The notes under the pieces were generated by a model, which saw nothing but the letters and a program-made list of their open reading frames with translations, did not search any database and was not told the origin of the DNA. Positions 615 through 49,700 of a stretch of DNA of 64,000 bases are shown piece after piece. Location of the stretch: the NCBI RefSeq assembly GCF_022045235.1, contig NW_027266264.1:80538001-80602000 (forward strand), given 5' to 3'. The DNA is from Haliotis cracherodii (taxonomy: Eukaryota). Position 1 is the first letter of the stretch. Every line of letters begins with the position of its first letter. Made by a program: the position numbers and the translations under genes.

Positions 615-821
615 ATGACGAGCGGTGCGTCCTCCCCAGTGGAATGAACCCTGACCCCGACAACTGTGCCCAGTTCCTGGCCTGTACCAACCGGACAGTG
701 GTGGCCACGATGCAGTGTCCAGAGAACACGCTCTTCTCCACCAAGAACAACACGTGCGATTTGAGTTTCCTCGTGGCTGCTGAGTGTCGTACGAGACTCA
801 TCCCAGAACACGTCGTTGTTA
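615..821 (+). CDS. Gene A, penultimate exon: chitin-binding type-2 (peritrophin-A/CBM14) domain; 5' part of the gene lies upstream of the window
   Basis: Acceptor tcttccctAG (613-614) and donor GTAAGT (822), phase 1/1. Translates DDERCVLPSGMNPDPDNCAQFLACTNRTVVATMQCPENTLFSTKNNTCDLSFLVAAECRTRLIPEHVVV with Cys spacing 12-5-10-12-9. Confidence 0.88.
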
Positions 822-842
822 GTAAGTACACAAACATGCAGC

Positions 843-1012
843 CCCGTGAAGATCCGGGCTAGGGCTGTCTGACTCGCTGATTTGGTGGAAGCTTTTAATT
901 GTTTCCCAATTGTGTGGATCGATGCTCATGATGTCAATCACTGGATTGTCTGGTTCAGACTCGATTATTTCCAGAACGCCGTCATAAAGCTGAAATATTG
1001 CTGAGAGTTGCG
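843..1012 (+). mobile_element. SINE-like S3, internally deleted
   Basis: CCCGTGAAGATCCGGG start and S3 3' half. Confidence 0.7.
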
Positions 1013-1096
1013 AGAGCCGGAAGAATTTCGTTTTCATTTTGTCTACATGTATATACACCATAGCACATTATTTCTCACGCTCATGACATAAATTGA

Positions 1097-1377
1097 GGGG
1101 GCACGGGTGGCCCAGTCGTCTAAGGCGCCGCGACTCGCTGTGCAGAGTTGCGTCCCCTAGGCACGCCAGAAACCTATGATTGTGGGTTCGAAACCCGGTT
1201 CGCCCCGATTATGTTTCAAGGTTTGTCAGCACCATACCCGTGCTCGTGGGTTTCACCGAAGTGGTAAACGTCTGAGACCTGCATCACTTCGGGCTTTCCT
1301 CCCACATTAAGCTGACACGCCGTGATATAACTGGAATACTGTTAAAAGCGGCGTTAAACCCAACTCACTCACTCACT
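1097..1377 (+). mobile_element. SINE family S1 (tRNA-Leu-like head), full length
   Basis: A-box TGGCCCAGTCGTCTAAGGCG, B-box GGTTCGAAACC, (ACTC)n tail, TSD CATAAATTGA (1087-1096/1378-1387); five copies in the window. Confidence 0.85.
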
Positions 1378-1474
1378 CATAAATTGAATTGGGCGGCTAT
1401 ATTAAATAGTAGGGTCTGGGAAGTCTTTGTGGGGTAGCACATGTAGACTCTCCACTAGTGTTGTGTACATGTTA

Positions 1475-2100
1475 CAGTCAATGTAAAAACGTTGGCAATT
1501 TACAAAATGTCTAAAGTTTTCGTTCACTTTACAAACTGATAAAAAAATCGGTCAGTGTTTTCGACAAATTGACGACAATTATCAAGAAGTTCAAAAGGGC
1601 TTACTATCATTACAATATACCAATCATGCAAGGATTATATTGGTTGGTTGTTTTGTTGTTTAACGCCGCGCTCAGCAATATTACAGCTATATGACGGCGG
1701 TCTGTAAATAATCGAGTCTGGACCAGCCAATCCAGTGATTAATATCATGAGCATCGATCCACACAATTGGGATCGATGTCATGCATCAAACCAAGTCAGC
1801 GGGCCTGATCACCCGATCCCGTTAGTCGCCTCTTACGACAAGCATAGTCGCCTTTTACGGCAAGCATGGGTTGCTGAAGACCTATTCTATCCCGGATCTT
1901 TACGGTTTGGCAAATATTATAAGCCAAAATTGACAATAATAATTTCTTTTAATCCTATTAGATGGTTATGAAATTCAACATCTAAGTCTATGGAATTCGT
2001 TGTCATTATAAAGTAAATGGACCGATTTTTCGGTCCATTTGTAAAATGACTAAATATTTAGGCGTTTTGTAAATTACCTCAGTGATTTAGACATTGACTG
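1475..2100. mobile_element. Tc1/mariner-type MITE with long imperfect TIRs
   Basis: TA|CAGTCAATGT...ACATTGACTG|TA; inverted similarity continues about 120 bp; S3 SINE nested inside. Confidence 0.7.
1641..1905 (-). mobile_element. SINE-like S3 nested in a MITE
   Basis: Reverse complement of 12943-13210. Confidence 0.82.
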
Positions 2101-2184
2101 TAACATATTCAACGTAGCACATTGTCATTGTGCCTATTTACAACGTTGTGAACCTACAATAACATCAGCACATCTCATCTTCAG

Positions 2185-2393
2185 CCACCGCTAGTCCCAT
2201 CGTCGATACCCCTTGTGAGGGAACCACGAACGGTGACGTCATTGACCCCACCAACTGCGCCCGCTTCTTCAAGTGCAACTACGGCCGCGTCGTCGCCAGA
2301 ATCAAGTGTCCCGCAAACAGCGCCTTCTCCTCCGACAAGCGCAAGTGCGACTGGAGAGCCAATGTGGACTGCGAGGATCGCCCATTGTCTTGA
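2185..2393 (+). CDS. Gene A, terminal exon: CBM14/peritrophin-A domain
   Basis: Acceptor catcttcAG (2183-2184), phase 1, in frame with the previous exon. Translates TASPIVDTPCEGTTNGDVIDPTNCARFFKCNYGRVVARIKCPANSAFSSDKRKCDWRANVDCEDRPLS*, Cys spacing 13-5-10-12-7 with canonical CDW. This frame is absent from the ORF track. Confidence 0.9.
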
Positions 2394-13700: not shown

Positions 13701-13773
13701 ATGGTGTCGGCGGTTCTTGGCTTGCTGTTGGGATGCCTGGCAATGTCCAGTGCACAAGTGCAAGATGAAGATT
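13701..13773 (+). CDS. Gene B exon 1: signal peptide of a secreted 2xCBM14 protein (152 aa)
   Basis: Kozak-like accATGg; MVSAVLGLLLGCLAMSSAQVQDED; donor GTAAGT at 13774, phase 1; near-identical copy at 23891. Confidence 0.85.
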
Positions 13774-15227: not shown

Positions 15228-15431
15228 ACGCGGTCCTATGTCAGAATAACTTCAACGATGAGTGGAAGTACGCGGCCCCAGGCTCGGGATGCAAGAGGTT
15301 CATCAGTTGCTATGGTCAGGATTACCACGGATTGCTTCAGTGTCCCGAGACGACTCTCTTCAATGAAAACACCCAGGAGTGTGAATACCCATTAGATTTC
15401 AACTGTCAGGTAGCCCTCAACGAAAACCCAG
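15228..15431 (+). CDS. Gene B exon 2: CBM14-like domain 1
   Basis: Acceptor ctttcAG, donor GTAACG. YAVLCQNNFNDEWKYAAPGSGCKRFISCYGQDYHGLLQCPETTLFNENTQECEYPLDFNCQVALNENP, Cys spacing 16-5-10-12-7. Confidence 0.88.
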
Positions 15432-15947
15432 GTAACGAAACATACATGATGCATATGATATTAATTATTTCGTAGCAATAGTGAAATAGCGTTGTCATCT
15501 CAGACGAGAACGTTAATATAATCTGATTGATTGTTTTGTGTATTCAACTAAGCATTGCCTAGCTTATCATTTATCATGGTTATAATTTACAGTTCAGATT
15601 GACAATGTACTTCCGTTTTGTGAACAGAAGGAATTCTGAGACGTGACTTTCTTTATTCCCCGAATGCACAAGATGCTTCAAGGGACCGTGACTGTCTTTT
15701 CAAATGGCTGGTTATGTGCAACGTTGGCGGGTTAAATAATCTTTTAAGTCATATAGTCTATATCAGTTATTTCAGTTACTAGTATTTATAAACTTAGTTG
15801 AACCCAGTTTCCGATAATAACCGTTGAATGTTTGAAGATGATCAACAGCGGATACGGGGTACGTTCCCGAAGCAAGAGAGTCAACTGACTTTGAAAGTTC
15901 AATTTTCTTCTTGCCGAACTAGGCTGGAATTATGGAGTTATATCTTG

Positions 15948-16113
15948 AGTAAGTGAGTGAGTATGGTTTTACGCCGCTTTTAGCAATATCCCAGCAATAT
16001 CACGGCGGGGGGCACCAGAAATGGGCTTCACACATTGTACCCATGTCGGGAATCGAACCCGGGTCTTCGGCGTGACAAGCAAACGCTTTAACCACTAGGC
16101 TACCCGACCGCCC
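15948..16113 (-). mobile_element. SINE family S2 (tRNA-Asp-like head), gene B intron 2
   Basis: Minus-strand head TAGCCTAGTGGTTAAAGCG..GTCACGCCGAAGACCCGGGTTCGATTCCC; TSD GAGTTATATCTTG (15935-15947/16114-16126). Confidence 0.85.
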
Positions 16114-17003
16114 GAGTTATATCTTGGCTGGCCAAACGAGTCTATTCACAGTCCAATCAAAATCGCGTTAGGAATTTGACATCCGGTTCGTTAACTGCCG
16201 GGCAGATTTCGGTCGATTGCAGAGTTTGTAATGCATGTGTGCCGTCTACTCGGCGTCAACAGATATTTCGCAAATCCAAAATCCAAAACGATTGAGCCCA
16301 GAAATTCCAGCATAGTTTGGCAAGGGTGGAAACTGGGCTTTTACAGTCAGCTGACTCTTTCCTCGGGAAGATGGTCACTGGTTTGCCATGAATCCGAAAC
16401 CGGACCGGAAATACTGTGGCTTTTCCACGGTCCATAACAATACACTAAACAGCTCATCCAACCCTCACTCACTCAGTAGCTCATCAACCCCTCACTCACC
16501 CTAAAGGATAAATGTCAACAGGAAGGGACAATCGTGAATCGAGAAAGGAATCAATATCTTGCTATTTTCTTTTTGATATTATACATCAAGAAATACCTAT
16601 TGAGCATATAGTATATATTGTTAGGATGACAGTCTAGTGGGGATGTTGACAGGATTTCCTTCAGGCGGTTTGTTACTACGTGACTTAAGCAAAATTTCAC
16701 AAATACGGAATAAACTTAAGATTTTCGAATGTTATGCCTCCCGTTAAGCCTGATAACTAATGTCAGTAGCCTTTAACTTATCAATAATAATATCAAAATA
16801 TGACATTTTTTAAATTTTTTCTTTCTCTATTTAATGAAATCACATAAGTAAGTTTGACATATTTCTATTAATATCGACTACTGTGAGGAAACGTCTGATT
16901 GATATTGCTTCAGGGACATAGGCGTATGATTCGAAGATGGTTACGGTTCTAAGGTGATTTCTGTTGAACGCTGTATTGTACTTACGTATGTGTTTGCTTC
17001 CAG

Positions 17004-17185
17004 ATTGTCTGACCGGCGTGGATTCCTACAATTGCTCAGTTTTCACGTACTGCCATCTTAACACCCAGTACAACTTCAGCTGCAACCAAGACCTCTACTA
17101 CTCTCAGAGCAAACTCACCTGTGTGTACGCTGAGGATCTGACAGAGGATGACAGACTCAAATGCAACCTCCGCAACGGACGATAG
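17004..17185 (+). CDS. Gene B exon 3: CBM14-like domain 2 and stop
   Basis: Acceptor tttgcttccAG. CLTGVDSYNCSVFTYCHLNTQYNFSCNQDLYYSQSKLTCVYAEDLTEDDRLKCNLRNGR*; AATAAA at 17220-17225. Confidence 0.87.
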
Positions 17186-17519
17186 GATTCAGCATAAGCA
17201 ATGTATTATCTGAACTTCAAATAAAGCCATTCAGACAATTATAACTTTGTGATGCATATATTTTCAAACGACGAGCGAGACAATAATAGTTCATATGCTG
17301 TCAAGTGAGTGGGGGTCAGCATGGCGTGTTGATGCAGCATCTGCCTGCTGCATCACGGCGGCCTAAATAACGACATAAGTTCTGAGAAGGTCGTTAAATG
17401 TATGGTCCCAGCCACCTCGGAGGAATGACACACCTAATAAGTGAGACCTCTGGCGGGGAACGACTTCAAAATTCAAAAACACTTCCTTTTTATGCAAATT
17501 GTGTGAGTGCTAGCAGCTA

Positions 17520-17688
17520 NNNNNNNNNNNNNNNNNNNNNNNNNNNNNNNNNNNNNNNNNNNNNNNNNNNNNNNNNNNNNNNNNNNNNNNNNNNNNNNNN
17601 NNNNNNNNNNNNNNNNNNNNNNNNNNNNNNNNNNNNNNNNNNNNNNNNNNNNNNNNNNNNNNNNNNNNNNNNNNNNNNNNNNNNNNNN
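17520..17688. other. Assembly gap (others at 24020-24185, 27500-27665, 50978-51285, 56859-57012)
   Basis: Runs of N. Confidence 0.99.
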
Positions 17689-17769
17689 CCCGTCCTCGTG
17701 TTATGCCCTCTCCATCCTATCTCCACAGAATATCCTTTGTCGGGCCTACGGTACCGTTACTATCTATAT

Positions 17770-19170
17770 TCTTCCCTCCTCGTTATGAATGCTGTTGATA
17801 ACGGTTGTCGGGTATAAGACCATGTACGTTCCTCGTTATGAATGCTATTGATGAAGGTTGTTGGGTATAAGACCATGTACGTTCATCGTTATGAATGCTG
17901 TTGATGAAGGTTGTCGGGTATAAGACCATGTACGTTCCTCGTTATGAATGCTATTGATGAAGGTTGTTGGGTATAAGACCATGTACGTTCATCGTTATGA
18001 ATGCTGTTGATGAAGGTTGTTGGGTATAAGACCATGTACGTTCCTCGTTATGAATGTTGTTGATAAGGGTTGTCGGGTATAAGACCATTTATCATAGACC
18101 ATGGGTAGGTTTCTCGGCAGGATAAAGCCAACGGATAAAAACGATATCCGTTGGGGTCATTTGCGGATAGAGATGCAAATATCAAAGGTCAAGTAGGGAC
18201 TACTTTCCTGTTTATAAACAAACATGGCGTCGCCCTCGTCATTCGGCAATCGAGTTAGAATTAACCATCGGGAATCTGGATAAACTACAGGGATAATTGT
18301 TATCATTATCAAAAGAACAGTCTAATATACTGAAAATCAGTGTCTAACTGTGACGTAGCTAAGGCATTTTATAAGTTTAGGCAACTTTGGAGATATAAAT
18401 TTCGAAACAATTTTGCGAGGGCACGAGGCCTAGCCAAGCGGGATCAGTAGCCATGACTGGTAGACCTCTGCGGCTTGAAACCTTCTCCACAAATTGAAAT
18501 AGTTGGATTTGGCCGAAATATGTTTGAATTGTTACCTTGTTTCGTTTTGTCGCTCTGTGTACATCTGACTACACTTCTTAACGTTATGACAAGACAGACC
18601 GACTGTCAACAACGTCTGACCGTGGCCGTGACGTCTCATAGACTAGGGTTAGAGTAGCTTCCCTTTGACAAAGGGCAGTTACTCTAGTGGACAGAGAGAT
18701 GGATTGCCGCGAAAGGCAATTAAAAACAATTGTTGTTTTGCGTATATGTTGCTTCGTGTACGTTCCTCGTTATGAATGCTGTTGATGAAGGTTGTCGGGT
18801 ATAAGATCATGTACGTTCCTCGTTATGAATGTTGTTGATGAAGGTTGTTGGGTATAAGACCATGTACGTTCCTCGCTATGAATGTTGGTGATGAAGGTTG
18901 TCGGGTATAAGACCATGTACGTTCCTCGTTGTGAATGCTGTTGATGAAGGTTGTCGGGTATAAGACCATGTACGTTCCTCGTTATGAATGTTGTTGATAA
19001 GGGTTGTCGGGTATAAGACCATGTATGTTCCTCGTTATGAATGCTATTGATGAAGGTTGTTGGGTATAAGACCATGTACGTTCCTCGTTGTGAATGCTGT
19101 TGATACAGATTGTCGAGCATGACACCGAGACCATGGTCGTTTCTCGTTATCATTGCTGTTGACAAGGGTT
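17770..19170. repeat. 53-bp minisatellite split by an unrelated segment of about 660 bp (about 18092-18756)
   Basis: GTTCCTCGTTATGAATGCTGTTGATGAAGGTTGTCGGGTATAAGACCATGTAC on both sides. Confidence 0.85.
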
Positions 19171-19379
19171 AACTAATACACCATCCTACCCCTATATAAT
19201 CTTGTAATCCTATTTTTTTTGTCACTCCACACCTATTTAGTGCGTCACCATACTGCTAACTAATACATCACCCTACTTCTATTTAATGCAACCCCGTAAT
19301 CCCGTGATGCCAATTTGGCAATCCATGTCATTATCTTTCTTAACAGGCGAATCCGATAATAGCTCTTCACATCTCTTGT

Positions 19380-19930
19380 TAACTCCACACGAAAAAATAT
19401 CCACACATAAATACTAAGTTCCGTACTGCAGACACCCAGATGCTCTTGCCTGTGTCATGAAGTTGCTGTAATATGTCATACTAGTGAGTCAGGTATCTAT
19501 GTTCATCCATCCTGAAGAACTTCAACCAATGTTTGAGACCTCGTATCTGACTAGAAATATACTAGAGTATAAGGGTCAGTTTCACAAGCCATGGCCTTAT
19601 TTGAAACGCATTTATCAACTCCTAAATGTCGCTTAAAGTACAAAGTGAGAACTTGCTTCAGTGGATTCCTAATACTTGGGTCACCAAATTTCGGATCCAA
19701 ATAATAAGATATGTGCGCTTTACAGTCACATCGTGGCCGTAGTACAAGATTTATATTTGTTTGTTGAATAATTTGTAAATTGGCCAAATTGTTTTAGATG
19801 GTTGTAAAGCTAGTTCACATTAATCTTGAAGAGACACTCCTTAATACTTATAACATGTAACAACCTTTAAGGTAGTATTAGTTTATGTCCATATCCTTTG
19901 TCTAATAATAATGCCCCCGTTCTAAATATT
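19380..19930 (-). mobile_element. Decayed LINE fragment, duplicate of about 9990-10530
   Basis: Near-identical to the segment upstream of gene B; part of the B/C duplication. Confidence 0.65.
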
Positions 19931-20089
19931 TCAACACTTGTGCCACCGGTGGGGCAGGATATGCTCACCTTTTTGTGAAAACTTGGTATCATCGCTATAT
20001 GATAGTGATTCATTAACACATGTTTATGATATAATCAAAATGGTACAAAGGACACTGCTTTTAGTAGAGGCCAAGCTGTATAACCACAG

Positions 20090-22660
20090 GTGTATTGTTG
20101 ACAATAACAACCTTCGTCAGTTTATTGAAATATGGACCACAATATCGGGAGCAGCCTCCTACCAATTGGGATGACAACTTGAAATTCATGATGGATGTTG
20201 TCGAAGCATATACCCCAAAATACAGAAGAGGAACACGTTGTCTGTCTTTCGGGGTGGATTAATTCAGTGCATGATGTTGTAATTGGTGGAATGCACAAAC
20301 TTAACAAGCCAGCTGTTATTCAAAGTATGGCTGTCCTATATGGAAACGTTGTAGTTGTTCCCACTGACAAAGCATTAAATAACATAACCATTACATGTAA
20401 GCTTCACTACATTAATTGTTTGATCAAAAACTTGGCATAAGCGACATATCAAATTGAGTCCATTATAAGGACAGTATGTTAACTGAGGAAGAAATTTACC
20501 AAAACCTTATATCAGTACTATCAACGTTTGACTTGACTATAAAACCTGAAGACATGTCCATTCCTCATTTAAACTGGATTGAAAGCTTCCTAAAAATTCG
20601 TACAAGGAGAGAAAAAATGGTGGGTCAAAAAAAGGTATTTGAAACAAGTGATATTATATACCATGTGGATTCTCCCAGGACATGCTTGAATCACAGAAAA
20701 GAACAAAGTTAAATTTTGTCAAAACATTTGACTTTCAACTTCATGCACCCATACCCACCGTGACACACGTAGGAAGGGAAAACTTCATTCCTTGACCAAT
20801 GGCGCATTTGTTACCAAACGTGGTGACCAGTCCGCCCTGGTCAAGATGCAACCCTAGTTATAATGCCATGTTTTTCTCAGAACGTAATTCCACAGTGCAA
20901 AATTCCCTGGTCATAAAGCCTTCCTGGTTATAAAGCCATGTTTTTCTCAGAACGGAATTCCACAGTGCAAAATTCCCTGTTCATAAAGCCATCATGGTTT
21001 TAATGCCATGTTTTTCTCAGAACGGATTTCCACAGTGCAAAATTCCCTGGTTATAAAGCCATCATGGTTTTAATGCCATGTTTTTCTCAGAACGGAATTC
21101 CACAGTGCAAAATTCCCTGGTTATAAAGCCATCCTGGTTATAATGCCATGTTTTTCTCAGAGCGGAATTCCACAGTGCAAAATTCCCTGGTTATAAAGCC
21201 ATCATGGTTATAATGCCATGTTTTTCTCAGAGCGGATTTCCACAGTGCAAAATTCCCTGGTTATAAAGCCATCATGGTTATGATGCCAATGCCAATGTTA
21301 GTCAGATCAAACGTTCCAGTTCACTGGTAATAATGCCATTTGTTTAAATTGTTACAAAAAATGCCAATGGAGTTAATCTTGTTGAGATTACCCCCTCTTC
21401 TAAATCATCCAACTAATTGCATTGATCATGTGTTTTCACAGCTATTCCTCACACACAGGCTAATCCTTGAGCATGTTAAGATTCATTTCCCGCCACCTAC
21501 AATCGCTCTTGATGCTATTATCCAATACCTTAAACTCCAGCTTAATCGTCCCATAGACTACACCCAGTGAAGATGATGTGATGACACCGCCACTACCGGC
21601 AACGTCTACGTGCAAACACTACACCATGGAGGTGATGGGGAGTCTTGAGGCAGAAGCAAGGGCTTTGGAACAGTGCTCATACTTGATTGACACACTGACA
21701 CAATTATCATGTCAAAGACTTACATTGTTTGTGTGCCCACGTTTGACTCCACGGTCGGCGATGTAAAAGGTGTAGTCCTGTTTGAAACAATAGCTTGGTT
21801 TGAATGGATGTGTCTTGGTTCTTACTAAATCTTCTGGTCTGGTTTTCACCTCCCTGGTTATAGAGCCACCCTGGTTATAGAGCCCCCCTGGTTAAAGTGC
21901 CATATTTTCCGGGAACGAAAGGTGGCATTATGACCAGAGAGGACTGTAGTTACATGTCGATCTTCGGAGGTTCAGGACAATCTGTCAATAATGAAAGCAA
22001 ATGCCATGTGAAGTATGCTGAGAAAACAATATCTGGAAAGCTGGACTTCCTCATTGATAATATCAACGTAAAATCTGGGGGTAAGACATTCAGACAAGAA
22101 GGAGCCATCCCCATGGTTCACCAATTGTGTTCACTTCCTTTCTGATAGGTTTCTTTATGCATATGGATCGGAATTTCTGCTCGGATTGGCGAAGTCAAAA
22201 CAGGTAATTCGGCCAAGAAGTTTAACATAAGGTTCAGGTACGTTCGGATATCGTTCGGATATCGTTCAAAACCCACCAAAAACCACCAAATAGCCAATTC
22301 CCTTCTACTGATTTACCCACCCCTCCTAGAAACAAAGGGGACCAGTGAGACCGCCTCGTATTTCATGTTTAGATCTATGCCTACAGATTCAGATTGACAT
22401 AAAACTCTCCACAAAACCGAATGACAAGAGGGATGACTTCAACTTCCCAACAGTCAACTTCCTCTTCATGTCGAGCGATATTCCTGCAGCGCCAGCCTTC
22501 GGTGTCTACATTCACAACTTTTGAGGTACAATCGAGCATGCTCTCTCTACCAAGGATTGAAAGAGCGTCACATCCGCAACTTAAGGACTCAGCAAAGACT
22601 TCAAAGCTTGTTTTGGTAGACCATAGGAAGTGGAGGTCATTTCCAAATTTAACATGATGT
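20090..22660 (+). mobile_element. Decayed Penelope-like element RT, interrupted by a MITE
   Basis: Motif remnants VVVPTDKALNNI, KTFDF, FLIDNI..FRQ..IPM(GTNC) and KRDDFNFPTVNFLFMSSDIPAAPAFGVYI; frameshifted. Confidence 0.7.
20828..21946. mobile_element. Tc1/pogo-like MITE containing a 70-bp minisatellite
   Basis: CAGTCCGCCCTGGTCAAGATGCAACC versus GGTGGCATTATGACCAGAGAGGACTG|TA; about six 70-bp units at 20858-21290. Confidence 0.6.
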
Positions 22661-23890
22661 CCGATGCAATTCCCTATTTTTGCTTATTCAATATGTTCCC
22701 GTGACTTTTTTCAGGTGAACAAGTAGCTTTTGCATGTATTTGTGACGGGTGCCACGGGTGGGATACCTCTTCGCGAACACCTGGTATCATCATTATTTTT
22801 TAATAGTAATTCATAAACAAATGCTTATGATTTAGTCGGAATCGTAAATGGACTCAAATTGTAGCAGAGAGATTACTTATTAATATGGAGAGGGTTTTAT
22901 CGCATATGCCTATGTAAAATGTTTTGTATTGCTTTTGTTTTATCACGATTTTTTTGTGTATCATCCTAACTGAGAGTCTAGCGTAGTGCGACATGTATAC
23001 GGGTGTCATATACACAGATCTCAATACGCATTTATTAAAAACAACACTATTTGACAAGCTCATTACGGGAGAGTCAGAGGGTATACCAGCACATCACGTG
23101 ACATGATCATTACGGGAGAGTCAGAGGGTAAACCAGTCATGTCTCGCCCTGTGGCCTGTCCCGTAAAGACACGTCAGTATTGTTGGCATATATGCTCTTA
23201 ACATCAGACAGACAGACATCCGTAGATTTGCAAACACCCTCTCACGACAAACATAGCATTTAAAGGAAATGCCTCTTCATTTCCACCATTGATACAGTTA
23301 ATTACAATAACCATCCCGATTTGTTTTTATCTGGCTGTGCAAACTGTGAGCAGTAATGACTTTAAACCACACGGTAGACGAAACTGTCTTCATGAAGAAG
23401 GGAAGCGGACTTACTACACATGGAATAATTAGACCACCCTTTATCATGTTTTCGTCATGGGATGCGAACGTAACGGAGGCGTTACACAAGAATCTGAGAA
23501 ATAGCAACGAATAAACTTCAGTGCACAGTTGAATCGGGTTTGTGTACAAGATGCAATTCTCAGCGACGTGCTAAACGTGCTACGCAAGGGTATGTGTTTC
23601 CGCCAAATAGGGAACTGAGTTGGTGTCTTACGTGATTCTGGTACTAATTAAACTAATTGTACAAGTCCAGGGCTTAAGGAAGCGAACTGACACACGTGTA
23701 AGGATGCAGTAAGATGGGTGTAGCCCCGCCTCGTCCGAGAATAGCGACACACTTCATTTAAATGAAGAATTTACATAAGGCGTGTTTACTAGTGGGTCAG
23801 TAGTATATTAAATCGATCGGTCGATTATCGTCCATTCTAAGTACAGCAACTCTTCCTTCCCTTCTCTCCAGTAATACACGCTCAGCAACC

Positions 23891-23963
23891 ATGGTGTCAG
23901 CGGTTCTTGGCTTGCTGTTGGGATGCCTGGCAATGTCCAGTGCACAAGTGCCAGAAGAAGATT
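23891..23963 (+). CDS. Gene C exon 1: signal peptide (paralog of B; 148 aa protein)
   Basis: MVSAVLGLLLGCLAMSSAQVPEED; donor GTAAGT at 23964. Confidence 0.85.
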
Positions 23964-24238
23964 GTAAGTAGAATTGAACTGAACTTGTCAGGAGGTAAAG
24001 TGGGTTGTACTTCGCTTCANNNNNNNNNNNNNNNNNNNNNNNNNNNNNNNNNNNNNNNNNNNNNNNNNNNNNNNNNNNNNNNNNNNNNNNNNNNNNNNNN
24101 NNNNNNNNNNNNNNNNNNNNNNNNNNNNNNNNNNNNNNNNNNNNNNNNNNNNNNNNNNNNNNNNNNNNNNNNNNNNNNNNNNNNNGGTGGAACTGTCCCG
24201 TCAATATTCACTTATGGCACTTAGTATACACAGTGCCA

Positions 24239-24497
24239 GGGGGCACGGGTGGCCCAGTCGTCTAAGGCGCCGCGATTCGCTGTGCAGAGTTGCGTCCCTT
24301 GGGCACGCCAGAAACCTATGAATGTGGGTTCGATAGTTTCTAGGTTTGTCAGCACCATACCCTTGGTGGGTTTCACCGAAGTGGTAAACGTCTGAGACCT
24401 GCATCACTTCGGGCTTTCCTCCCCGATAAGCTGACACGCCATGATATAACTGGAATACTGTTAGAAGCGGCGTTAAACCCAACTCACTCACTCACTC
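24239..24497 (+). mobile_element. SINE S1 in gene C intron 1
   Basis: Homologous to 1097-1377 with a short internal deletion. Confidence 0.8.
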
Positions 24498-25021
24498 AGT
24501 GGGTTCCACGTTTGATCTACCTGTGAATCAGTGTGCTTCTTGTCAACCAGCAAAACTCTATCATCTGTTACCCTACAGTAGTGTAAGAAAATACGTGAGT
24601 ATATTTTGACAATAACGCCACGCGGTGGAACAAGACACATAATTCAACGGCAGAGAACACACCTTGTGTTCCTCCCTTATGTGAGAGCACAGTCGTAGGG
24701 CTTCACATCCTTCACGCCGTGGGGATTCCGGGTAAGAATAGGTCCACAGCCACCTATGTTCTTCCTACAAGGCGACTAAATGAATACGGTGACTTGGTGC
24801 CATGGTTAACGGCACGGATCGTTGTTCATAATATCAATCACTGGTTTGCCTGGCCCGGATTCCATTATTTACAGTCCACCTTCATATGGTTGGAATACGC
24901 TAACATCGCAAGGAAGCAAAGGTATTACATGGTTTGACATTACCCGACTAATGTACGAGAATGTCTTGAGGATTCCCATTACAACAGAAGGTATCAGAAC
25001 AGCAGGGATCGTGTTGTTTGA

Positions 25022-25379
25022 GATGAGGTGAAGTGAAATGGGGTTTAACGTCGCGTCCAAGATTGTTGCACATATATAGCGACGAGCATGTACGTGTGTG
25101 TGTTTGTGTGGCTTCTTGTACTAGTCCGGACTGATGCCGACTTATAGTACCAGCTCACCAGCTACCATGCCACAGTTTAACATGAATACCCCACTCAGAC
25201 ACTGTATACTGACTCCGAGCCGACCAGTCCCGACCAGTTAGCCCCTTAATACCGGGCGCCAGACAGGGTAACAACAAGTACCATCTTTTAACGGCTTTTG
25301 GTATGACGCGGTCTGAGATCGAACCCCGGACCTTCCGCTCTCCGAGCGGACGTTCTACCACTAGACCACGGGGGCGGTC
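25022..25379 (-). mobile_element. SINE family S4 (tRNA head with Meta/MESC-like core), gene C intron 1
   Basis: A and B boxes; core GTCATACCAAAAGCCGTTAAAAGATGGTACTTGTTGTTACCCTGTCTGGCGC resembles the MetaSINE/MESC core (from memory); TSD TCGTGTTGTTTGA (25009-25021/25380-25392); empty site in B near 14987. Confidence 0.85.
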
Positions 25380-25612
25380 TCGTGTTGTTTGAACCAGACT
25401 CGACCTCGATAGTCCCACATGTTGACATCTCCTTCATGAAGCTTACTTACCATCATCTCGCCATTGACGTATGAAATAATACCGAAAATGCAGGTTTTCA
25501 TTATTGACAGTGTAGGACCCATTTCGATGTCTGTACATTTATACCGACCTGACTGTGGTGGCACCGAAGTTTCCGACTCTATGTGTGTACTAATATGACT
25601 TTTTCACTGTCT

Positions 25613-25878
25613 GGCCCAGTCGTCTAAGGCGCCGCGATTCGCTGTGCAGAGTTGCGTCCCTTAGGCACGCCAGAAACCTATGATTGTGGGTTCGAATCCC
25701 GGTTCGCCCCGATTATGTTTCTAGGTTTGTCAGCACCATACCCGTGCTCGTGGGTTTCACCGAAGTGGTAAACGTCTGAGACCTGCATCACTTCGGGCTT
25801 TCCTCCCACATTAAGCTGACACGCCGTGATATGACTGGAAAACTGTTAAAAGCGGCGTTGAACTTAACTCACTCACTG
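25613..25878 (+). mobile_element. SINE S1 inserted in the polypyrimidine tract of gene C exon 2
   Basis: TSD TTTCACTGTCT (25602-25612/25879-25889); absent at the equivalent site in gene B. Confidence 0.85.
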
Positions 25879-25894
25879 TTTCACTGTCTTTTAG

Positions 25895-26098
25895 ACGCGG
25901 TCCTATGTCAGGATAACTACAACGGTGACTGGAAGTACGTGGCCCCAGGCTCGGGATGCAAGAGGTTCATCAATTGTGGTGGTCAGGATTACCACGGATT
26001 GCTTCAGTGCCCCGAGACGACTCTCTTCAATGAAAACGCCCAGGATTGTGTATACGCAGCGGATTCCAATTGTCAGGAACCCTTCAACGAAAACCCAG
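25895..26098 (+). CDS. Gene C exon 2: CBM14-like domain 1
   Basis: Acceptor gtcttttAG, donor GTAACG; same 204-nt length as B exon 2. YAVLCQDNYNGDWKYVAPGSGCKRFINCGGQDYHGLLQCPETTLFNENAQDCVYAADSNCQEPFNENP. Confidence 0.88.
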
Positions 26099-27121: not shown

Positions 27122-27291
27122 ACTGTGTGACCGGCGTGGATCCCTACAACTGCTCAGCCTTCACATACTGCCATCTTAACACCCAGTACAACTTCAGCTG
27201 CAACCAAGACCTCTACTACTCTCAGAGCAAACTCATCTGTGTGTACGCTGATGATCTGACGGAGGACGACAAATACCTGTGCGGCTTCTAG
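27122..27291 (+). CDS. Gene C exon 3: CBM14-like domain 2 and stop
   Basis: Acceptor tttgcttccAG. CVTGVDPYNCSAFTYCHLNTQYNFSCNQDLYYSQSKLICVYADDLTEDDKYLCGF*; AATAAA at 27368-27373. Confidence 0.87.
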
Positions 27292-30285: not shown

Positions 30286-30352
30286 ATGTTGACGTTCTCT
30301 AGTATCGGTATTGCTCTTCTGGGACTTTTCTTCACTGTAGACGGACAAACAG
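30286..30352 (+). CDS. Gene D exon 1: signal peptide of a secreted 2xCBM14 protein (150 aa)
   Basis: MLTFSSIGIALLGLFFTVDGQT; donor GTAAGT at 30353, phase 1; TATA box about 105 bp upstream; homologous exon in E, F and G. Confidence 0.85.
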
Positions 30353-30909
30353 GTAAGTGTTTCTTCACCTGGACTTATGTAAACTGTCAGCGTAACATCA
30401 GCCTGGTGACGTAGCCTTAACGCCACACCGACGTCAGTGTTAAACGGTTGTAGATAGAGATGCGCTAGTTTGTTGAACAGACTCGTTATCTTAACGTGTT
30501 GAACCAAGGCATCAAAACAGACTTCCTTTGTTCGGTGTCGCGTAAAAGATAACAGTCAATGTGAACGTTAGCATGATTGAGAGATCCTGGTTAACACTAT
30601 ACTTCGACGTGGGTAAAACTTGACGATCAGTTATTGATATTTAACTTAACTTTATATTATCACTAATTGATAATGAATCTATAACGACACGCCATATTAG
30701 CAGTTAATGATACTGCATCTATAATTATATATCATATTAGTAGTTATTGATACTGCATCTTTAATTATATATCATGTAAGCAGTAATTGATACTGCATCT
30801 GCAATTAAGTACCATATTATCAATAGTTGACACTCCATCTTTGAATTAAACACAATATTATCGGTTGTTGATACTGAAATAGTGACGTTATAAAGGTTTG
30901 TTCTTATGC

Positions 30910-31310
30910 AATGTTGTTCCGTCACAATAGTTTCTTCAGAGGCCGTCATGCAAAATTGTTCAGTCAGAATAGTTTCTTCAGAGATCATCATACTAAATGG
31001 TTCAGTCACAATAGTTTCTTCAGAGGCCGTAGTTTCTTCAGAGGCCGTCCTACAAAATTGTTCAGTCACAATAGTTTCTTCAGAGACCGTCCAACAAAAT
31101 TGTTTAGTCACAATAGTTTCTTCAGAGACCGTAATACTAAATTGTTCAGTCACAATAGTTTCTTCAGAGACCGTAATACTAAATTGTTCAGTCACAATAG
31201 TTTCTTCAGAAACCATCATACAAATTTGTTCAGTCACAATATTTTGTTCAGAGACCGTCATACTAAATTTTCAGTCACAATAGTTTCTTCAGAGGCCGTC
31301 ATACTGAATT
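30910..31310. repeat. 42-bp minisatellite, gene D intron 1
   Basis: AATTGTTCAGTCACAATAGTTTCTTCAGAGACCGTCATACTA. Confidence 0.85.
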
Positions 31311-31544
31311 ATAGTTAATTTAGGTTGAGCCGTAATACTTTCTTTAGGGTCAGTCCTAAGTATTGGTTAGATAGCGGGGCGCCGAGGACTCTAGGTTATA
31401 CCCCATGGTCCAAATGTTCTAACCTATTTAAATCATGGCCAACATTCAAAGTACCTTGGCACCTTAACTATTTAACAGCTTTGTTTTGTTCACCTTATTT
31501 CAAAATATATTCAAGAGCTCTAAACTAGGAAAACTGTTTAAGTA

Positions 31545-32380
31545 GAGTGAGCCCTCATGATTGTGTGGAGTCAACCCTAATGGTTATGTAGAGTCAGGCA
31601 GAATGATTCTGTAGAGTCAGCCCTAATGGTTGTGTGGAGTCAACCCTAATGGTTGTGTAGAGTCAGCCAGAATGATTCTGTAGAGTCAGCCCTAATGGTT
31701 GTGTGGAGTCAACTCTAATGGTTGTGTAGAGTCAGGCAGAATGATTCTGTAGAGTCAGTCCTAATGGTTGTGTAGAGTCAGGCAGAGTGATTCTGTAGAG
31801 TCAGTCCTAATGGTTGTGTAGAGTCAGCCAGAGTGATTCTGTAGAGTCAGCCCTAATGGTTGTGTGGAGTCAACCTTAATGGTTGTGTAGAGTCAGGCAG
31901 AATGATTCTGTAGAGTCAATCCTAATGGTTGTGTAGAGTCAGCCAGAGTGATTCTGTAGAGTCAGCCCTAATGGTTGTGTGGAGTCAACCTTAATGGTTG
32001 TGTAGAGTCAGGCAGAATGATTCTGTAGAGTCAATCCTAATGGTTGTGTAGAGTCAGCCAGAGTGATTCTGTAGAGTCAGCCCTAATGGTTGTGTGGAGT
32101 CAACCTTAATGGTTGTGTAGAGTCAGGCAGAATGATTCTTTAGAGTCAGTCCTAATGGTTGTGTGGAGTCAACCCTAATGGTTGTGTAGAGTCAGGCAGA
32201 ATGAATATGTAGAGTTAGCCCTAATGGTTGTGTAGAGTCAGCCAGAGTGATTTTGTAGAGTCAGTCCCCATGGTTATGTAGAGTCAGTTAGAATGACTCT
32301 GTAGATTCAAGCCACATGGTTGTGTAGAGTCAGTCAGAATGTTTCTTTAAAGTCACTCGTAATGGTTGTGTAGAGTCAGT
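31545..32380. repeat. Minisatellite of about 23-24 bp, gene D intron 1 (short paralog at 40230-40460 in E)
   Basis: AATGGTTGTGTAGAGTCAGTCCT variants. Confidence 0.85.
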
Positions 32381-32456
32381 CATAGATGAGGGTAAGTCAT
32401 CAGTGACTTCTTCACTTGTAAGCAACAGCTGCTGTATTTGATCGTGTTTGTTGCAG

Positions 32457-32663
32457 TGGCACCAGATCCCCGGTGTGATGCGTTCCGGGATGGCATAGGG
32501 AACATCATGGTGGAAGGCATGGATTGCAGATACTACCTCTCGTGCTGGAACTTCATCATCGATCACGAACCCATGCACTGTGCTGGCGGGACGATCTTCA
32601 ACCCAGACACTGGCATGTGTGATGCGGAGGAATGCAACGAAGGAAACACTCAATCTCAATACG
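32457..32663 (+). CDS. Gene D exon 2: CBM14-like domain 1
   Basis: Acceptor tttgttgcAG, donor GTTAGT. VAPDPRCDAFRDGIGNIMVEGMDCRYYLSCWNFIIDHEPMHCAGGTIFNPDTGMCDAEECNEGNTQSQY, Cys spacing 16-5-11-12-4. Confidence 0.88.
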
Positions 32664-32704
32664 GTTAGTGCTCAACTACTGATACCTTTTGGTCACAACT
32701 ACCA

Positions 32705-33058
32705 GGCCGCCTCCGTGGTCTTGTGGTAGAGCGTCCGCTCGGAGAGCGGAAGGTCAGGGGTTCGATCCCCGGCCGCGTCATACTGAAAGACGTTAAAAGA
32801 TGGTACTTGTTGTTACCCTGTCTGGCGCTCGGCATTAAGGGGCTAAAACAAGGACTGGTCGGCTCAGTATACTGTCTGTATACTGTCTGAGTGGGGTATT
32901 CATGTTAAACTGTGGCGTGGTATCTCAGTGAGCTAGCACTATAAATCGGCATCAGTCCGGACTAGTACAAGCAGCCACACACACACGTGCATGCACGTCG
33001 CTATATAAGTGCAATAATCTTGGACGCGACGTTAAACCCAATTTCACCTCACCTCACC
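32705..33058 (+). mobile_element. SINE S4, gene D intron 2
   Basis: Full-length homolog with (CACCT)n tail; empty site in gene E near 40760. Confidence 0.85.
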
Positions 33059-33562
33059 ACACTGTGACAACAAATATCACAACTATTATCTAGTGACACT
33101 GGAACAACAGAACTGCTACTGCAACAGCTACACAACTTATACCAGGAGAACTCTTACAGCCGTACTGACCACCCGGCAGTAATGACATCGATACGACCTC
33201 ATACTACTGTTTTTACCACTGACTGACTACCGCCTGTAGTACGTAACATTATTCAATTAATTAAATACCAAATAAATGATGTCAGCATATGGCTAGATAA
33301 GATAGATATCCCTTTGGGGACCCGGGTTAGAATAGGTCTCCTTGACGATTGATTATCGTTCTCCTACGTTGTTCATCATATCAATCACTGGTTTGTAGGC
33401 CAATACTCGATTATTTTCATGCTGCTAGAATGAGTTGGAATATTAATGACAGGGTATAAAAGAGTATTCGCTGCCGACATATATATGATGAAGCCATTTT
33501 TATACAAATGTACTGTAAAAGTACCGGAAAAGTCAAAAGGTCTCATTCTCTATTTTGAACAG

Positions 33563-33741
33563 TGTGTCAAGAGGGTGCTCTACAGGGTGACTGTTCCCGC
33601 TACAACTTGTGTTTCAACACTCCCAATGTCACCTTCCAATGTGGCGAGCAAACCTACTACCACAACGAAATGCTCGTGTGCGTAAATCCCAGCGAATACC
33701 CGGACTTGCCAGAAGAACAGGGATGTGCCTACAATCCCTAG
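33563..33741 (+). CDS. Gene D exon 3: CBM14-like domain 2 and stop
   Basis: Acceptor ttttgaacAG. CQEGALQGDCSRYNLCFNTPNVTFQCGEQTYYHNEMLVCVNPSEYPDLPEEQGCAYNP*; AATAAA at 33968-33973. This frame is absent from the ORF track. Confidence 0.87.
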
Positions 33742-39358: not shown

Positions 39359-39425
39359 ATGTTGAAATTCTCTGGTATCGGTATTGCTCTTCTGGGACTT
39401 GTCCTCGCTATTGACGGACAAAGAG
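39359..39425 (+). CDS. Gene E exon 1: signal peptide (152 aa protein)
   Basis: MLKFSGIGIALLGLVLAIDGQR; donor GTAAGT at 39426. Confidence 0.85.
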
Positions 39426-39574
39426 GTAAGTGATTCTTCACCTGGAGTTGCCTTAACGCTCAACGACGCCATTGTTAAACGGTTGTAGACAGAGATGCGT
39501 TACCTTGTTGAACAGATTCGTTGTCGTTGTGCGTTGAACCTATGCGTAAAAGGTAACACGTTAGCATGATTGAG

Positions 39575-39742
39575 TGAGTGAGTGAGTGAGTATGGTTTTA
39601 CGCCGCTTTTAGCAATATTCCAGCAATATCACGGTGGGGGACACCAGAAATGGGCTTCACACATTGTACCCATGTCGGGAATCGAACCCGGGTCTTCGGC
39701 GTGACGAGCGAACGCTTTAACCACCAGGCTACCCGACTGCCC
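39575..39742 (-). mobile_element. SINE S2, gene E intron 1
   Basis: TSD TTAGCATGATTGAG (39561-39574/39743-39756); empty site in gene D near 30568. Confidence 0.87.
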
Positions 39743-40517
39743 TTAGCATGATTGAGGAATCAAGGTGGGTAAAACTTGACTACCAATAACTGATACTGCG
39801 GTTGTGAGTATAGGTTAGAGGGGGGAGGGCTGAGGATGCCAATGCAGGGTACGCATGCTCTCACCTGTTTAAACAATGGCGAACATTCAAAGAACCTTAG
39901 CACCTAAAATGTTCAAACAGAATTATCATGTTGACCTTATTTTAAAAGATATCGTCACTGTGTGATGCACGTGAAATATGTTCCCTGTGCCTGTGGCTGC
40001 TCGAGTGATGAAATGCACGTCCCAGGGCAAATATGCAATTTATACATGCGATTAGGCTCCAACTCCTGTTGCTCTTACCTATACTTAGGACCCTACTTAG
40101 TGAGCCCTACTGGGTAAATAGAGCCAGTCATTATGTTCAATAGAGTCCGTTCATATGGTTCATAAGGGCCCCTCGGTGTGGTTCTGTAGATGCATCCCTA
40201 ATTGTTCTTTGACGTCAGTCCTGGTGTTTCTGAGTTAGTCCTAAAGGTTATGTAGAGTTAGTCCTAATGGTTGTGTAGAGTCAGTCCTAACGGTTGTGTA
40301 GATTCAGTCCTAATGGTTGTGTAGAGTCAGTCCTAACGGTTGTGTAGAATCAGTCCTAATGATTGTGTAGAGTCAGTCCTAATGGTTGTCTAGAGTCAGT
40401 CAGAATAGTTCTGTGCATAGAATGTGTTTTTTAAGTCACTCGCAATGGTTGTGTAGAGGCAGTCAAAGATGAGGGTAAGTCATCAGTGAAGTCTACATCT
40501 GATCCTGTTTGTTGCAG

Positions 40518-40724
40518 TGGCACCGGATCCCCGGTGTGATGTGTTCCGGGATGGCACAGGGAACATCATGGTGGACGGCATGGGGTGTAAATACTACCTC
40601 TCGTGCTGGAACTTCATCATCGCTTACGAACCCATGCCCTGTGCTGGCGGCTCCATCTTCAATCCAGACACTGGCATGTGTGATGCGGTGGAATGCTTCG
40701 ATAGAAGCGTTCTGTCTCAATATG
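40518..40724 (+). CDS. Gene E exon 2: CBM14-like domain 1
   Basis: Acceptor gttgcAG, donor GTTAGT; 207 nt as in D. VAPDPRCDVFRDGTGNIMVDGMGCKYYLSCWNFIIAYEPMPCAGGSIFNPDTGMCDAVECFDRSVLSQY. Confidence 0.88.
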
Positions 40725-40878
40725 GTTAGTGCTCAACTATTGTTACCTCTTGGTCACAACTACCACTGTGACTACAAATATCACAACTATTATCAACAGC
40801 ATCATAACGACAACCAGTTACACTGGAACAACAGAACTGCTGCTACAGCAACAACTACGCTACTTGTACTAATCGTCT

Positions 40879-41084
40879 AGTCGTCTAAGGCGCCGCGATT
40901 CGCCGCGCACAGTTGTAGAGTTGTGTTTCTAGGTTTGTAGGCACCATACCCGTGCAATGTTTCACCGGAGTGGTAAACGTCCGAGACCTGCATTCGGGCT
41001 TTCCTCCCACATTAAGCTGACACGCCGCGATATAACTGGAAGACTGTTAAATTCGGCGTTAAACCCAACTCACTCACTCACTCA
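40879..41084 (+). mobile_element. SINE S1, internally deleted, gene E intron 2
   Basis: GTCGTCTAAGGCGCCGCG through AAACCCAACTCACTCAC. Confidence 0.75.
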
Positions 41085-41246
41085 TTGTCTTGTTTGTCAG
41101 CTATGTTCATGACACAGATTTAAGGTGAAATATTTATTGGTCATTAACAGCATCGGTCACATGTGCAGGCCGACATTATAACATTCTAATTTACTGTAAA
41201 AGCTATGCGAAGACTTTCAGGTCACATCATACTCTTTTTTGAACAG

Positions 41247-41431
41247 ACTGTCAACCGGGTTCTCTGGCGGAAGATTGTACCCGCTTCAACATCTGTTTCA
41301 ACACGTTCCATATCTCATACACTTTCCAATGTGGCGAGGGAACCTACTACCACAACGAACTACTCGTGTGCGTCAACCCCAAAGAGTACCCTGGTGTGCC
41401 ACGGAACCAGGGATGCGTCTACAACATCTAG
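41247..41431 (+). CDS. Gene E exon 3: CBM14-like domain 2 and stop
   Basis: Acceptor ttttgaacAG. CQPGSLAEDCTRFNICFNTFHISYTFQCGEGTYYHNELLVCVNPKEYPGVPRNQGCVYNI*. Confidence 0.87.
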
Positions 41432-47026: not shown

Positions 47027-47093
47027 ATGTTGAAATTCTCTGGTATCGGTATTGCTCTTCTGGGACTTGTCCTCGCTATTGACGGACAGATGG
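47027..47093 (+). CDS. Gene F exon 1: signal peptide (154 aa protein)
   Basis: MLKFSGIGIALLGLVLAIDGQM; donor GTAAGT at 47094. Confidence 0.85.
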
Positions 47094-47238
47094 GTAAGTA
47101 GTTCTCCCCTTGGTGTGTTAAGTAAACTGTCAACGTTACATCAGCCTGTTGACGTTGCCTTAACGCTACACCGACGTCAGTGTTAAACGGATTTAGATAG
47201 AGATGGCTTGCCCTGTTCAACAGACGTCGACCGAGTCG

Positions 47239-47281
<43 letters not shown>

Positions 47282-47957
47282 ACAATATGTATGCACGTGG
47301 TTTGCATCGGTAATGCGATAGTTAAGAAGGAAATAACGTTTGCCAGCTGTGTATGCGTTGTATGTGATATGCATTCAAATTCCCTGGTCATTCTTGATAT
47401 TTCATGTATATTTCTCCATCTACGGGCCGCATTTGAACTCAATAGTTTATGCAGAATAAGAACTCGGGCATGTTTTGTTACATTTAATAGCAACCCTTCG
47501 GCTGTTGCCACCGTTTGGGATACTGGGATACTTGTCGGTGATGTGTCTCAAGGCATTGACTTGGTGCATGCAGAGGCCTTGCTAATTTAATAGATATTTG
47601 GTGCAGGAAGAAGGGTTTTAATTGGTGTCCTTGTGTTAGTTCTTCCAGTTATGGTCTACATGAACGGTATTACTGAGGATTAAACAGTGTTATCGAACGC
47701 TAGGCAGAGTGACATCTTTTAACGTGTATTTGTATCACGCTGCCGGGGATCGAACACCGACCTTCCTCTTTCCGGACAGACACGCTATTCACCAGACCAA
47801 GAAGGCGGTGATGGCACAGATAAGCATGATGACAAGATGATATGGCCAGTTTGAACTTGCAACCTATTCATCTGTGTCTTTAATTTAAACATAATCTTGA
47901 ACGTGACTTTAAACTCCATTTCACCTCACCTAATTAATCACACATCAGTAAGATCCT

Positions 47958-48160
47958 TGTTTGTTGTTTAACGCCGCACTCAACAATATTCCAGCTATTT
48001 GACGGCTGTCTGTAAATAATCGAGTCTGAACCAGACAATCCAGTGATTGACATAATGAACATCGATCCATGCAATTGGAATACGATGGCATGCATCATCA
48101 CCCAAGTCAGCAAGCCTGACCAGCCGGTCCCGTTAGTCCCCTCTTTCGACAAGCATAGTA
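47958..48160 (-). mobile_element. SINE-like S3, 5'-truncated
   Basis: Homology to S3. Confidence 0.75.
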
Positions 48161-49630: not shown

Positions 49631-49700
49631 TGGGGGTAAGTATAAGTAAAACATCCCCAGTATCCAATCACATAATTAACCTCAGGATATACTGTATATA

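Follow-up and report, generated by a model that had tools for sequence, protein, structure and literature searches.

The window analysed here, a stretch of 64,000 nucleotides of Haliotis cracherodii (NCBI RefSeq assembly GCF_022045235.1, contig NW_027266264.1, positions 80,538,001 to 80,602,000 of the forward strand), lies in a tandem cluster of genes for small, predicted secreted proteins. In the 264 kb surrounding the window we find 11 two-domain genes, all on the same strand and each encoding a signal peptide followed by two CBM14 (peritrophin-A) domains; the cluster begins about 5 kb upstream of the window and ends 41 kb downstream. Our subject is two of these genes, B and C, and above all their exon 2, which encodes CBM14 domain 1. 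A first-pass annotation had proposed that this domain carries an excess of amino acid change between the two paralogs and that a fixed leader and cysteine scaffold with variable loops is typical of immune-recognition or toxin-like families. We find instead a modest difference in constraint between the two domains, with variation in domain 1 concentrated in one short loop between cysteines.

Both genes have open frames and GT-AG introns, with exon 2 bordered by AG and GT in phase 1, and both models are identical to database proteins labelled Haliotis cracherodii (P0006 for B, P0002 for C). The proteins, of 148-152 residues, consist of the leader and two CBM14 domains and nothing else, only six residues separating the leader from exon 2. 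They are new members of a known family, which the NCBI annotation already lists as uncharacterised or peritrophin-44-like. Genome searches, whose counts are lower bounds, recovered no close copies of B exons 2 and 3 outside the cluster, and a literature search by title and abstract start, with most subscription journals outside its reach, found nothing on this gene cluster. The features of B and C, all on the + strand, are as follows.

13701..13773, +: gene B exon 1, signal peptide and six mature residues; gene model and NCBI protein P0006 are identical
15228..15431, +: gene B exon 2, CBM14 domain 1 and a short linker; cysteine spacing 16-5-10-12-7; Pfam E-value 6.3e-7, above cut-off
15377..15394, +: hypervariable patch surrounding Tyr78, a residue that aligns with Trp465 of chitotriosidase; codons 50-55 of B, residues 75-80
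17004..17185, +: gene B exon 3, CBM14 domain 2 and B-type tail; spacing 8-5-9-12-13; E-value 8.4e-8; exon 2-3 joint present in RNA contigs
23891..23963, +: gene C exon 1, signal peptide; protein P0002
25895..26098, +: gene C exon 2, CBM14 domain 1; E-value 5.9e-7; matched by RNA contigs of run X1 with 0 differences
25980..26037, +: 58-base stretch identical between C and B (B 15313-15370), only with the X1 allele at 26010
26044..26061, +: C codons 50-55, with 13 of 35 variant rows from four runs, 11 of them replacements
27122..27291, +: gene C exon 3, encoding CBM14 domain 2 with the short tail of C type; the C-type end is present in an X1 RNA contig

Assignment to the family is firm. All nine exons scanned pass Pfam CBM14 (PF01607), those of B and C at 29.9-32.7 bits compared with a gathering score of 22.1, and both domains have the six-cysteine spacing of the family (16-5-10-12-7 and 8-5-9-12-13). 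With the peritrophin-A proteins of PF01607, among them the H. rufescens ortholog of C annotated as 'peritrophin-44-like', B and C share the signal peptide, the six-cysteine domains, the fold and a 12-residue hairpin between the fourth and fifth cysteines (C4-C5) with Phe or Tyr at C4+6. They differ in having only two domains with no mucin spacer, and in a domain 2 whose C1-C2 gap is short (8) and whose C5-C6 segment is long and helical (13); chitin binding and a gut location are putative for both. A predicted model of B built on a 34-sequence alignment has a mean predicted local distance difference test score (pLDDT) of 81 and a predicted template modelling score (pTM) of 0.74; an earlier fold from a 10-sequence alignment was poor (pLDDT 51) and was not used. 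Foldseek placed the Aplysia protein EHEP first (E 5e-5, template modelling (TM) score 0.31), followed by tachycitin, chitotriosidase, Avr4 and Der p 23. In VIA-align the top eight rows were all CBM14 proteins (Z 3.4-6.5), and the leading ones, EHEP (6.5; root-mean-square deviation 2.6 over 60 residues), Avr4 (5.8), Der p 23 (5.8) and Avr4 again (5.7), are effectively tied and align mostly on domain 1. ESM Atlas returned only CBM14 clusters, below 0.9. The suggestion of a toxin-like family is therefore not supported: both domains are Pfam CBM14 and the fold matches CBM14 proteins only. No knottin- or conotoxin-type fold appeared among the top structure-search rows, although such a listing excludes no family.

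Transcription was assessed from sequencing runs in the form of assembled contigs, of which X1 and X2 were taken to be RNA by guess, a view supported by exon-only cover and splice joints; contig depth in these data is no guide to the ranking of genes or tissues. In X1 and X2, contigs span the three B exons at a word depth of about 1,500-11,000, compared with 0-2 in single-copy intron bins, and join exon 2 to exon 3 at GT..AG (four runs compared with B). On C exon 2, X1 yields C-type contigs with 0 differences (depths 2271 and 2598) and B-lettered contigs at 2963-3422, and the loose ends of its exon 2 contigs run into exons 1 and 3. B and C are both transcribed and spliced in at least one sample and hence are not pseudogenes; the loss of expression that the first-pass annotation had named as the alternative to selection does not apply to genes with open frames, canonical splice sites and spliced contigs of both types. 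Run X15 has almost no cover of B exons 1-2 and X13 a depth of 27, neither of which we count as evidence, and X19 behaves as DNA. Every X1 contig carries B's base at 26010, which means that one of the three silent B/C differences is polymorphic or converted. With this allele the 58-base B/C identity is unusual by permutation (p 0.011), and with the reference allele it is not (p 0.37); it is possible that the stretch marks a conversion tract or purifying selection. Run X2 additionally contains a third abundant B-like transcript type (depth 1850; matched to 25895-26009 and 15391-17010), its domain 1 rich in replacements over the first half and its joint to exon 3 shorter.

The counts on which the first-pass annotation rested are reproducible. 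Exon 2 of B and C differs at 16 amino-acid-changing and 3 silent codons among 67 full codons, that of paralogs D and E at 16 replacement and 5 silent codons of 68, the 18-residue signal peptides of B and C are identical (although the full exon 1 carries 2 replacement differences and 1 silent one), their domain-2 cores differ at 5 of 48 residues, and the cysteines are invariant. The excess read from these counts is not reproducible, since 16:3 had not been normalised by sites: with replacement and silent sites in a ratio of 3.7:1, it lies near the neutral expectation. Counted per site, B/C exon 2 has 18 replacement changes over 158 sites and 4 silent changes over 43, a ratio of replacement to silent rates (dN/dS) of 1.24 (Fisher p 0.47), which rises to 1.61-1.69 with transition bias (p 0.26-0.28) and is 1.55 by codon likelihood, with a 95% profile interval of about 0.6 to 5 and p 0.45 for comparison with 1. 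An excess over the domain is not demonstrated, every whole-domain test being compatible with 1, and the data are too few, and of too low power, to exclude one. Nor does exon 2 stand out from its surroundings: its replacement divergence (0.114) is not above that of aligned non-coding B/C sequence (143/1084 = 0.132, p 0.61), which is itself heterogeneous (p 0.019), or that of the intron stretches beside exon 2 (34/329 = 0.103, p 0.42). A divergence of 0.29 for the 3' part of intron 2, obtained by global alignment, was set aside as probable misalignment in favour of the local value of 0.185. A hand-read alignment with rubra C-type as outgroup polarises 10 of the 16 replacements, 6 to the B branch and 4 to the C branch, and leaves 6 unplaced. 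The supposed parallel in D and E shows no excess (dN/dS 0.67), and F and G show none either (0.83).

These results bear directly on the proposal that positive selection has acted throughout domain 1 of an immune-recognition protein, which we now regard as improbable. Its point estimates do exceed 1 (1.24-1.69), copy number changes fast (four B-like loci in H. rufescens), and peritrophin-A-domain genes, not necessarily of this cluster, are reported as up-regulated in Haliotis iris after herpesvirus challenge (PMC7558354, PMC9327721); on the other side, no test is significant, D/E and F/G lie below 1, and the mature proteins are acidic (isoelectric point 4.05-4.45). What survives of the immune or toxin-like interpretation is a looser domain 1, variation focused on a loop, and expression; what does not is the domain-wide excess, the D/E parallel and the toxin-like assignment.

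Domain 1 is indeed less constrained than domain 2. In the exon-3 core, B and C differ by 5 replacement changes over 111 sites and 5 silent changes over 33, a dN/dS of 0.26-0.37 compared with 1.2-1.6 for domain 1, and domain-2 replacement divergence lies below the non-coding value (5/111 vs 143/1084, p 0.006) whereas that of domain 1 does not. The contrast in rate between the domains is real but modest, with p 0.016 under one silent clock, 0.043 under free clocks and 0.078 by plain Fisher test.

Within domain 1, variation is concentrated in the inter-cysteine loop at residues 75-80. The most variable of the 67 columns among 10 proteins from four species are residues 75, 80 and 79, with 6, 6 and 5 states, and the five columns around residue 78 are enriched at a permutation p of 0.00014, for a window picked after inspection of the data. 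Variation on C exon 2 gives a parallel picture: 35 variant rows from four runs, unphased and classified by hand (rows near contig ends are unlisted and one gapped row pair was left out), comprise 28 replacement and 7 silent variants, or 1.08-1.43 of neutral (p 0.26-0.53), the dN/dS among orthologs likewise deriving from unphased rows. Codons 50-55 hold 11 of the 28 replacement variants (p 0.004 after correction for the scan, and p 0.004 or 0.0006 relative to the silent rate of the whole exon); in the rest of the exon the pooled ratio is 0.89-1.19. Among close B copies, codons 50-55 have changed repeatedly, to different residues. We consider that codons 50-55 are probably under diversifying selection. 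The loop is the strongest case for selection at this locus, weakened by the multi-base changes, the unphased rows and the lack of a match in domain 1 of D-G.

The position of the loop is suggestive of function. Cys63-Cys76 of domain 1 and Cys119-Cys132 of domain 2 are in register with Cys450-Cys463 of the human chitotriosidase CBM14, which in domain 1 puts Tyr78 at the position of Trp465, with residues 77 and 79 aligned to Thr464 and Asn466. Trp465 is, in the available portions of PMC5459812 and PMC4844120, the main chitin-binding residue of chitotriosidase. Of the three high-impact residues of that domain (Pro451, Leu454, Trp465), B and C keep the proline (C4+1) only in domain 1, the leucine (C4+4) only in domain 2 and an aromatic at the Trp465 position (C5+2) in both (Tyr78, Tyr134), so that neither domain has all three; tyrosine replaces tryptophan, the catalytic domain is absent, and domain 1 of H. 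asinina and H. rubra has Asp at C5+2. The domain-2 aromatic is kept in 10 of 10 B/C proteins. Paralogs D-G (30286-62736) and gene I (~90217-97270, loci L007-L008) have this aromatic in neither domain and may therefore not bind chitin in the usual way; binding residues are reported not to be conserved across the CBM14 family.

The simplest reading of the trees, which are mosaic, is an old duplication followed by repeated gene conversion. Four B-like loci and a single C ortholog are present in H. rufescens; records from H. asinina and H. rubra number two per species, one of B type and one of C type. The tails are diagnostic in all four species with records, C-type proteins ending at residue 148 and B-type proteins running on, and the remainder of the gene gives conflicting signals. 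For B and C of H. cracherodii and H. asinina, 17 informative sites (residues 3-140) group by species and 2 (145, 147) by type; for H. rubra and H. asinina, 13 group by type, 3 by species and 2 across; and for H. cracherodii and H. rufescens, 14-17 group by type and 0 by species. Between the asinina paralogs, 3 of 48 domain-2 core residues and 24 of 66 exon-2 residues differ. The exon-3 core tree unites asinina B with asinina C (96/94) and rejects a single B clade, and exon 2 rejects the asinina pairing (approximately unbiased (AU) test p 0.0015, for a pair named after inspection of the exon-3 tree). Rates also differ by type: C differs from its H. rufescens ortholog at 3 of 148 residues (2 of 67 in domain 1, which is thus near-fixed between the two species), and B from the H. 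rufescens B-like copies at 17-21 (p 0.001). The identical leader of B and C is weak evidence for the first-pass interpretation, as it has only 18 codons and E, F and G share a leader as well; leaders group by species, as conversion predicts. The H. rufescens protein P0004 (246 residues) is annotated with two copies of domain 1 and a leader-like stretch between them, and is probably two partial genes fused by annotation, and its second domain 1 joins a B-type core to a C-type linker, a visible recombinant. A tail like the unusual one of domain 2 also ends a three-domain protein of Gigantopelta aegis (P0046, 210 residues), which suggests that the subfamily is older than the abalones.

A similar pattern, in which tandem paralogs are partly homogenised and one part remains paralog-specific, is described for primate red/green opsin exon 5 and the RHD/RHCE divergence peaks in the text available of PMC3924837. 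The likeness is clearest in H. asinina, where domain 2 and domain 1 contrast as given above; in H. cracherodii, unlike those systems, the introns are as diverged as exon 2, and there is thus no peak and no sign of strong ongoing conversion. We also asked whether the difference between domains in H. cracherodii could stem from a recently converted domain 2, and rejected this, because domain-2 silent divergence is not reduced.

Taken together, these data lead us to a composite reading that we hold to be somewhat better supported than not: domain 2 is under purifying selection, domain 1 is roughly neutral overall, a six-codon loop within it is probably diversifying, and the genes, intact, transcribed products of an old duplication with conversion, encode small proteins with a predicted signal peptide. 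In this account an old duplication would have produced the B-type and C-type genes, which would have exchanged leader and domain 2 time and again through conversion or unequal crossing-over; an overwrite in the common ancestor of H. cracherodii and H. rufescens may have spared little of the gene but the tail. Domain 1 would then have diverged again on both branches, C nearly freezing and B continuing to duplicate and change. Domain 2 may serve as the anchor in a chitin- or mucus-based lining, and the variable loop of domain 1 may tune binding to dietary or microbial molecules. That the protein lines a surface, most plausibly in the gut, and that its ligand preference is set by the loop of domain 1, is a tentative proposal to which we give rather less than an even chance.

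Several observations weigh against this account. In none of the tests, by counting or by likelihood, is dN/dS over the whole domain significantly above 1, and a B/C test limited to sites variable in four asinina and rubra proteins gave no excess (p 0.15-0.33). Site models on domain 1 of D-G give no signal (M8a/M8 p 0.21; M1a/M2a p 0.84) and on the Cys-to-Cys cores of both domains a weak one (M8a/M8 p 0.024; M1a/M2a p 0.20), recombination and multi-base changes being outside the model; a full-exon signal (M1a/M2a p 0.003) was set aside, as its top sites lie in the linker and C-terminal ends and it falls to the values just given on the cores. The window around residue 78 was chosen post hoc, and codons 50-55, with about 4 silent sites, also hold 2 of the 7 silent variants (p 0.21) together with several multi-base changes, which together allow for a local hot spot of mutation or micro-conversion. 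A single B clade is compatible with exon 2 on its own (AU p 0.084), the H. rufescens B-like copies are not one-to-one orthologs of B, and between species B domain 2 changes as much (7-10 of 60) as domain 1 (4-7 of 67). Silent divergence between B and C in H. cracherodii is not lower in domain 2 (0.15) than in domain 1 (0.09), and recent conversion is accordingly no explanation there. Finally, the chitotriosidase pocket residues are only partly kept.

Much of this would also follow if constraint had simply been relaxed, a redundant domain 1 drifting neutrally after homogenisation and the loop being a tolerant surface or mutation hot spot. The whole-domain ratios compatible with 1, the ratio of 0.89-1.19 outside codons 50-55, the somewhat high silent change within the patch, and a C5-C6 spacing that varies from 4 to 14 residues across the cluster all agree with such drift. 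We nevertheless think it rather unlikely as the full explanation: 26 of the 67 domain-1 residues are invariant in the 10 proteins, so that a mean ratio near 1 requires values above 1 at some sites, close B copies show recurrent change to different residues in the loop codons, and a domain 1 near-fixed in C across two species, in apparently highly expressed genes, is not what drift predicts.

As to function, two further alternatives to a lining protein with a tunable loop depend on comparisons with known CBM14 proteins. One is that B and C are structural chitin-binding matrix proteins of shell, periostracum or radula with the fast sequence turnover of mollusc secretomes. CBM14 proteins are recorded in abalone shell matrix (ML5H8, PMC2989941), in the mantle and scales of the scaly-foot snail (PMC7142155) and in the mussel mantle rim (PMC5549309), none necessarily of this cluster, and the acidity of the proteins and the domain-2 aromatic kept in all ten would fit. 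ML5H8, as described in that portion, is a 10 kDa protein of pI 10 with four of the six cysteines, unlike B and C; the vWA domain that Pif/BMSP combines with chitin-binding domains (PMC11291548, in part), like their low-complexity domain, is missing from B and C, which have leader and two CBM14 domains only; and a focused hypervariable loop would be unexpected of a scaffold. We judge this possibility unlikely, if less so than domain-wide immune selection.

The other alternative is that these are abundant gut proteins that, like EHEP, bind brown-algal phlorotannins, protect digestive enzymes and diversify with a kelp diet. EHEP (Aplysia kurodai, PDB 8IN3 and 8IN6) is, like B and C, a small secreted tandem CBM14 protein with tandem paralogs, rich in Asn, Tyr and Cys as B is, from a gastropod that grazes seaweed as abalone do; it is the best structural match and the only solved one spanning the signal peptide and both domains. 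According to the portions at hand of PMC5271319 and PMC10619976 it has CBM14 domains and binds phlorotannin in sea-hare digestive fluid, and is reported there neither to bind chitin nor to be antimicrobial. D, E, F, G and I resemble it in having no C5+2 aromatic in either domain, and one H. discus hannai CBM14 gene, not necessarily of this cluster, varies with amylase and cellulases (PMC11989308, in part). The match itself is slight, with 22-30% identity, a TM-score of 0.31, a Z score tied with Avr4 and Der p 23, and a sequence E-value of 0.008 that ranks behind a squid beak protein (0.003), and it probably signifies no more than a tandem arrangement of CBM14 domains. In EHEP, tannin is bound at the centre of a triangle of three domains, whereas B and C have two domains and few prolines (4-7); the first cysteine gap of domain 2 (8) is shorter than the x15 stated for EHEP, and B and C of H. 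cracherodii keep the C5+2 tyrosine that EHEP does not have. A related protein of the vent snail Gigantopelta, which is not known to graze kelp, shares the domain-2 tail. For B and C we therefore rate this explanation as doubtful, on a par with domain-wide immune selection.

The remaining genes of the cluster in the window, all on the + strand, are these.

617..2390, +: paralog A, two CBM14 exons at ~617-820 and ~2187-2390
30286..33741, +: paralog D, exons 30286-30352, 32457-32663 and 33563-33741
39359..41431, +: paralog E, exons 39359-39425, 40518-40724 and 41247-41431
47027..51985, +: paralog F, exons 47027-47093, 50299-50502 and 51792-51985
57626..62736, +: paralog G, exons 57626-57692, 61177-61380 and 62552-62736

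The first exon of paralog A was not located within the window. Directly upstream lies a recent tandem twin of A (L017, window-relative -5296 to -3190), with exons 96% and 87% identical, and a further gene of the A type, J, stands at the opposite end of the cluster. The leaders of E, F and G (39359-39425, 47027-47093, 57626-57692) are identical in protein, yet domain identity among the three is 54-74%; a different leader is common to H. asinina and H. rubra, each of which yielded a single F/G-like record. Rates within the cluster are very uneven: between H. cracherodii and H. rufescens, gene I (window-relative ~93520-97270; P0161, P0019) is invariant over exons 2-3 (0 of 128), while G (13 of 151) and B differ by 9-14%.

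The B/C duplication unit reaches about 4 kb upstream of each gene (9469-10538 and 19375-19928; 10818-12246 and 23052-23518), and a 47-base minisatellite has about 22 copies before B and about 2 before C. A short interspersed repeat, some 165 bases in length, occupies differing intron positions in B and C (15946-16113, 26203-26374, 39571-39742 and others) and is present in extreme abundance among both DNA and RNA contigs. Intron 2 of F and of G contains long ACT-type trinucleotide runs (50558-51703, 61521-62043), which are non-coding in the database models.

The 16:3 ratio that drew attention to this locus is a counting effect, and the value that remains is useful but modest. In an endangered abalone, it brings to light an uncharacterised, apparently highly expressed 11-gene cluster with a modular history, in which the leader and domain 2 are common to paralogs and domain 1 and the tail are paralog-specific, and with one candidate specificity loop. 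A bolder and, in our view, quite improbable conjecture is that the whole cluster is an abalone anti-tannin arsenal, independent of or alongside Aplysia EHEP, that is secreted in the gut, with most members having no chitin-binding aromatic, a leader and domain 2 maintained by conversion, and a loop diversified against kelp phlorotannins; it would then be a marine counterpart of the tannin-binding salivary proteins of mammals, and an arms race between herbivore and seaweed would be readable in DNA. Were the ligand a microbial molecule, these would be candidate disease-resistance genes; were it phlorotannin, the published claim that EHEP has no functional counterpart elsewhere would be overturned, with a bearing on how abalone digest kelp.

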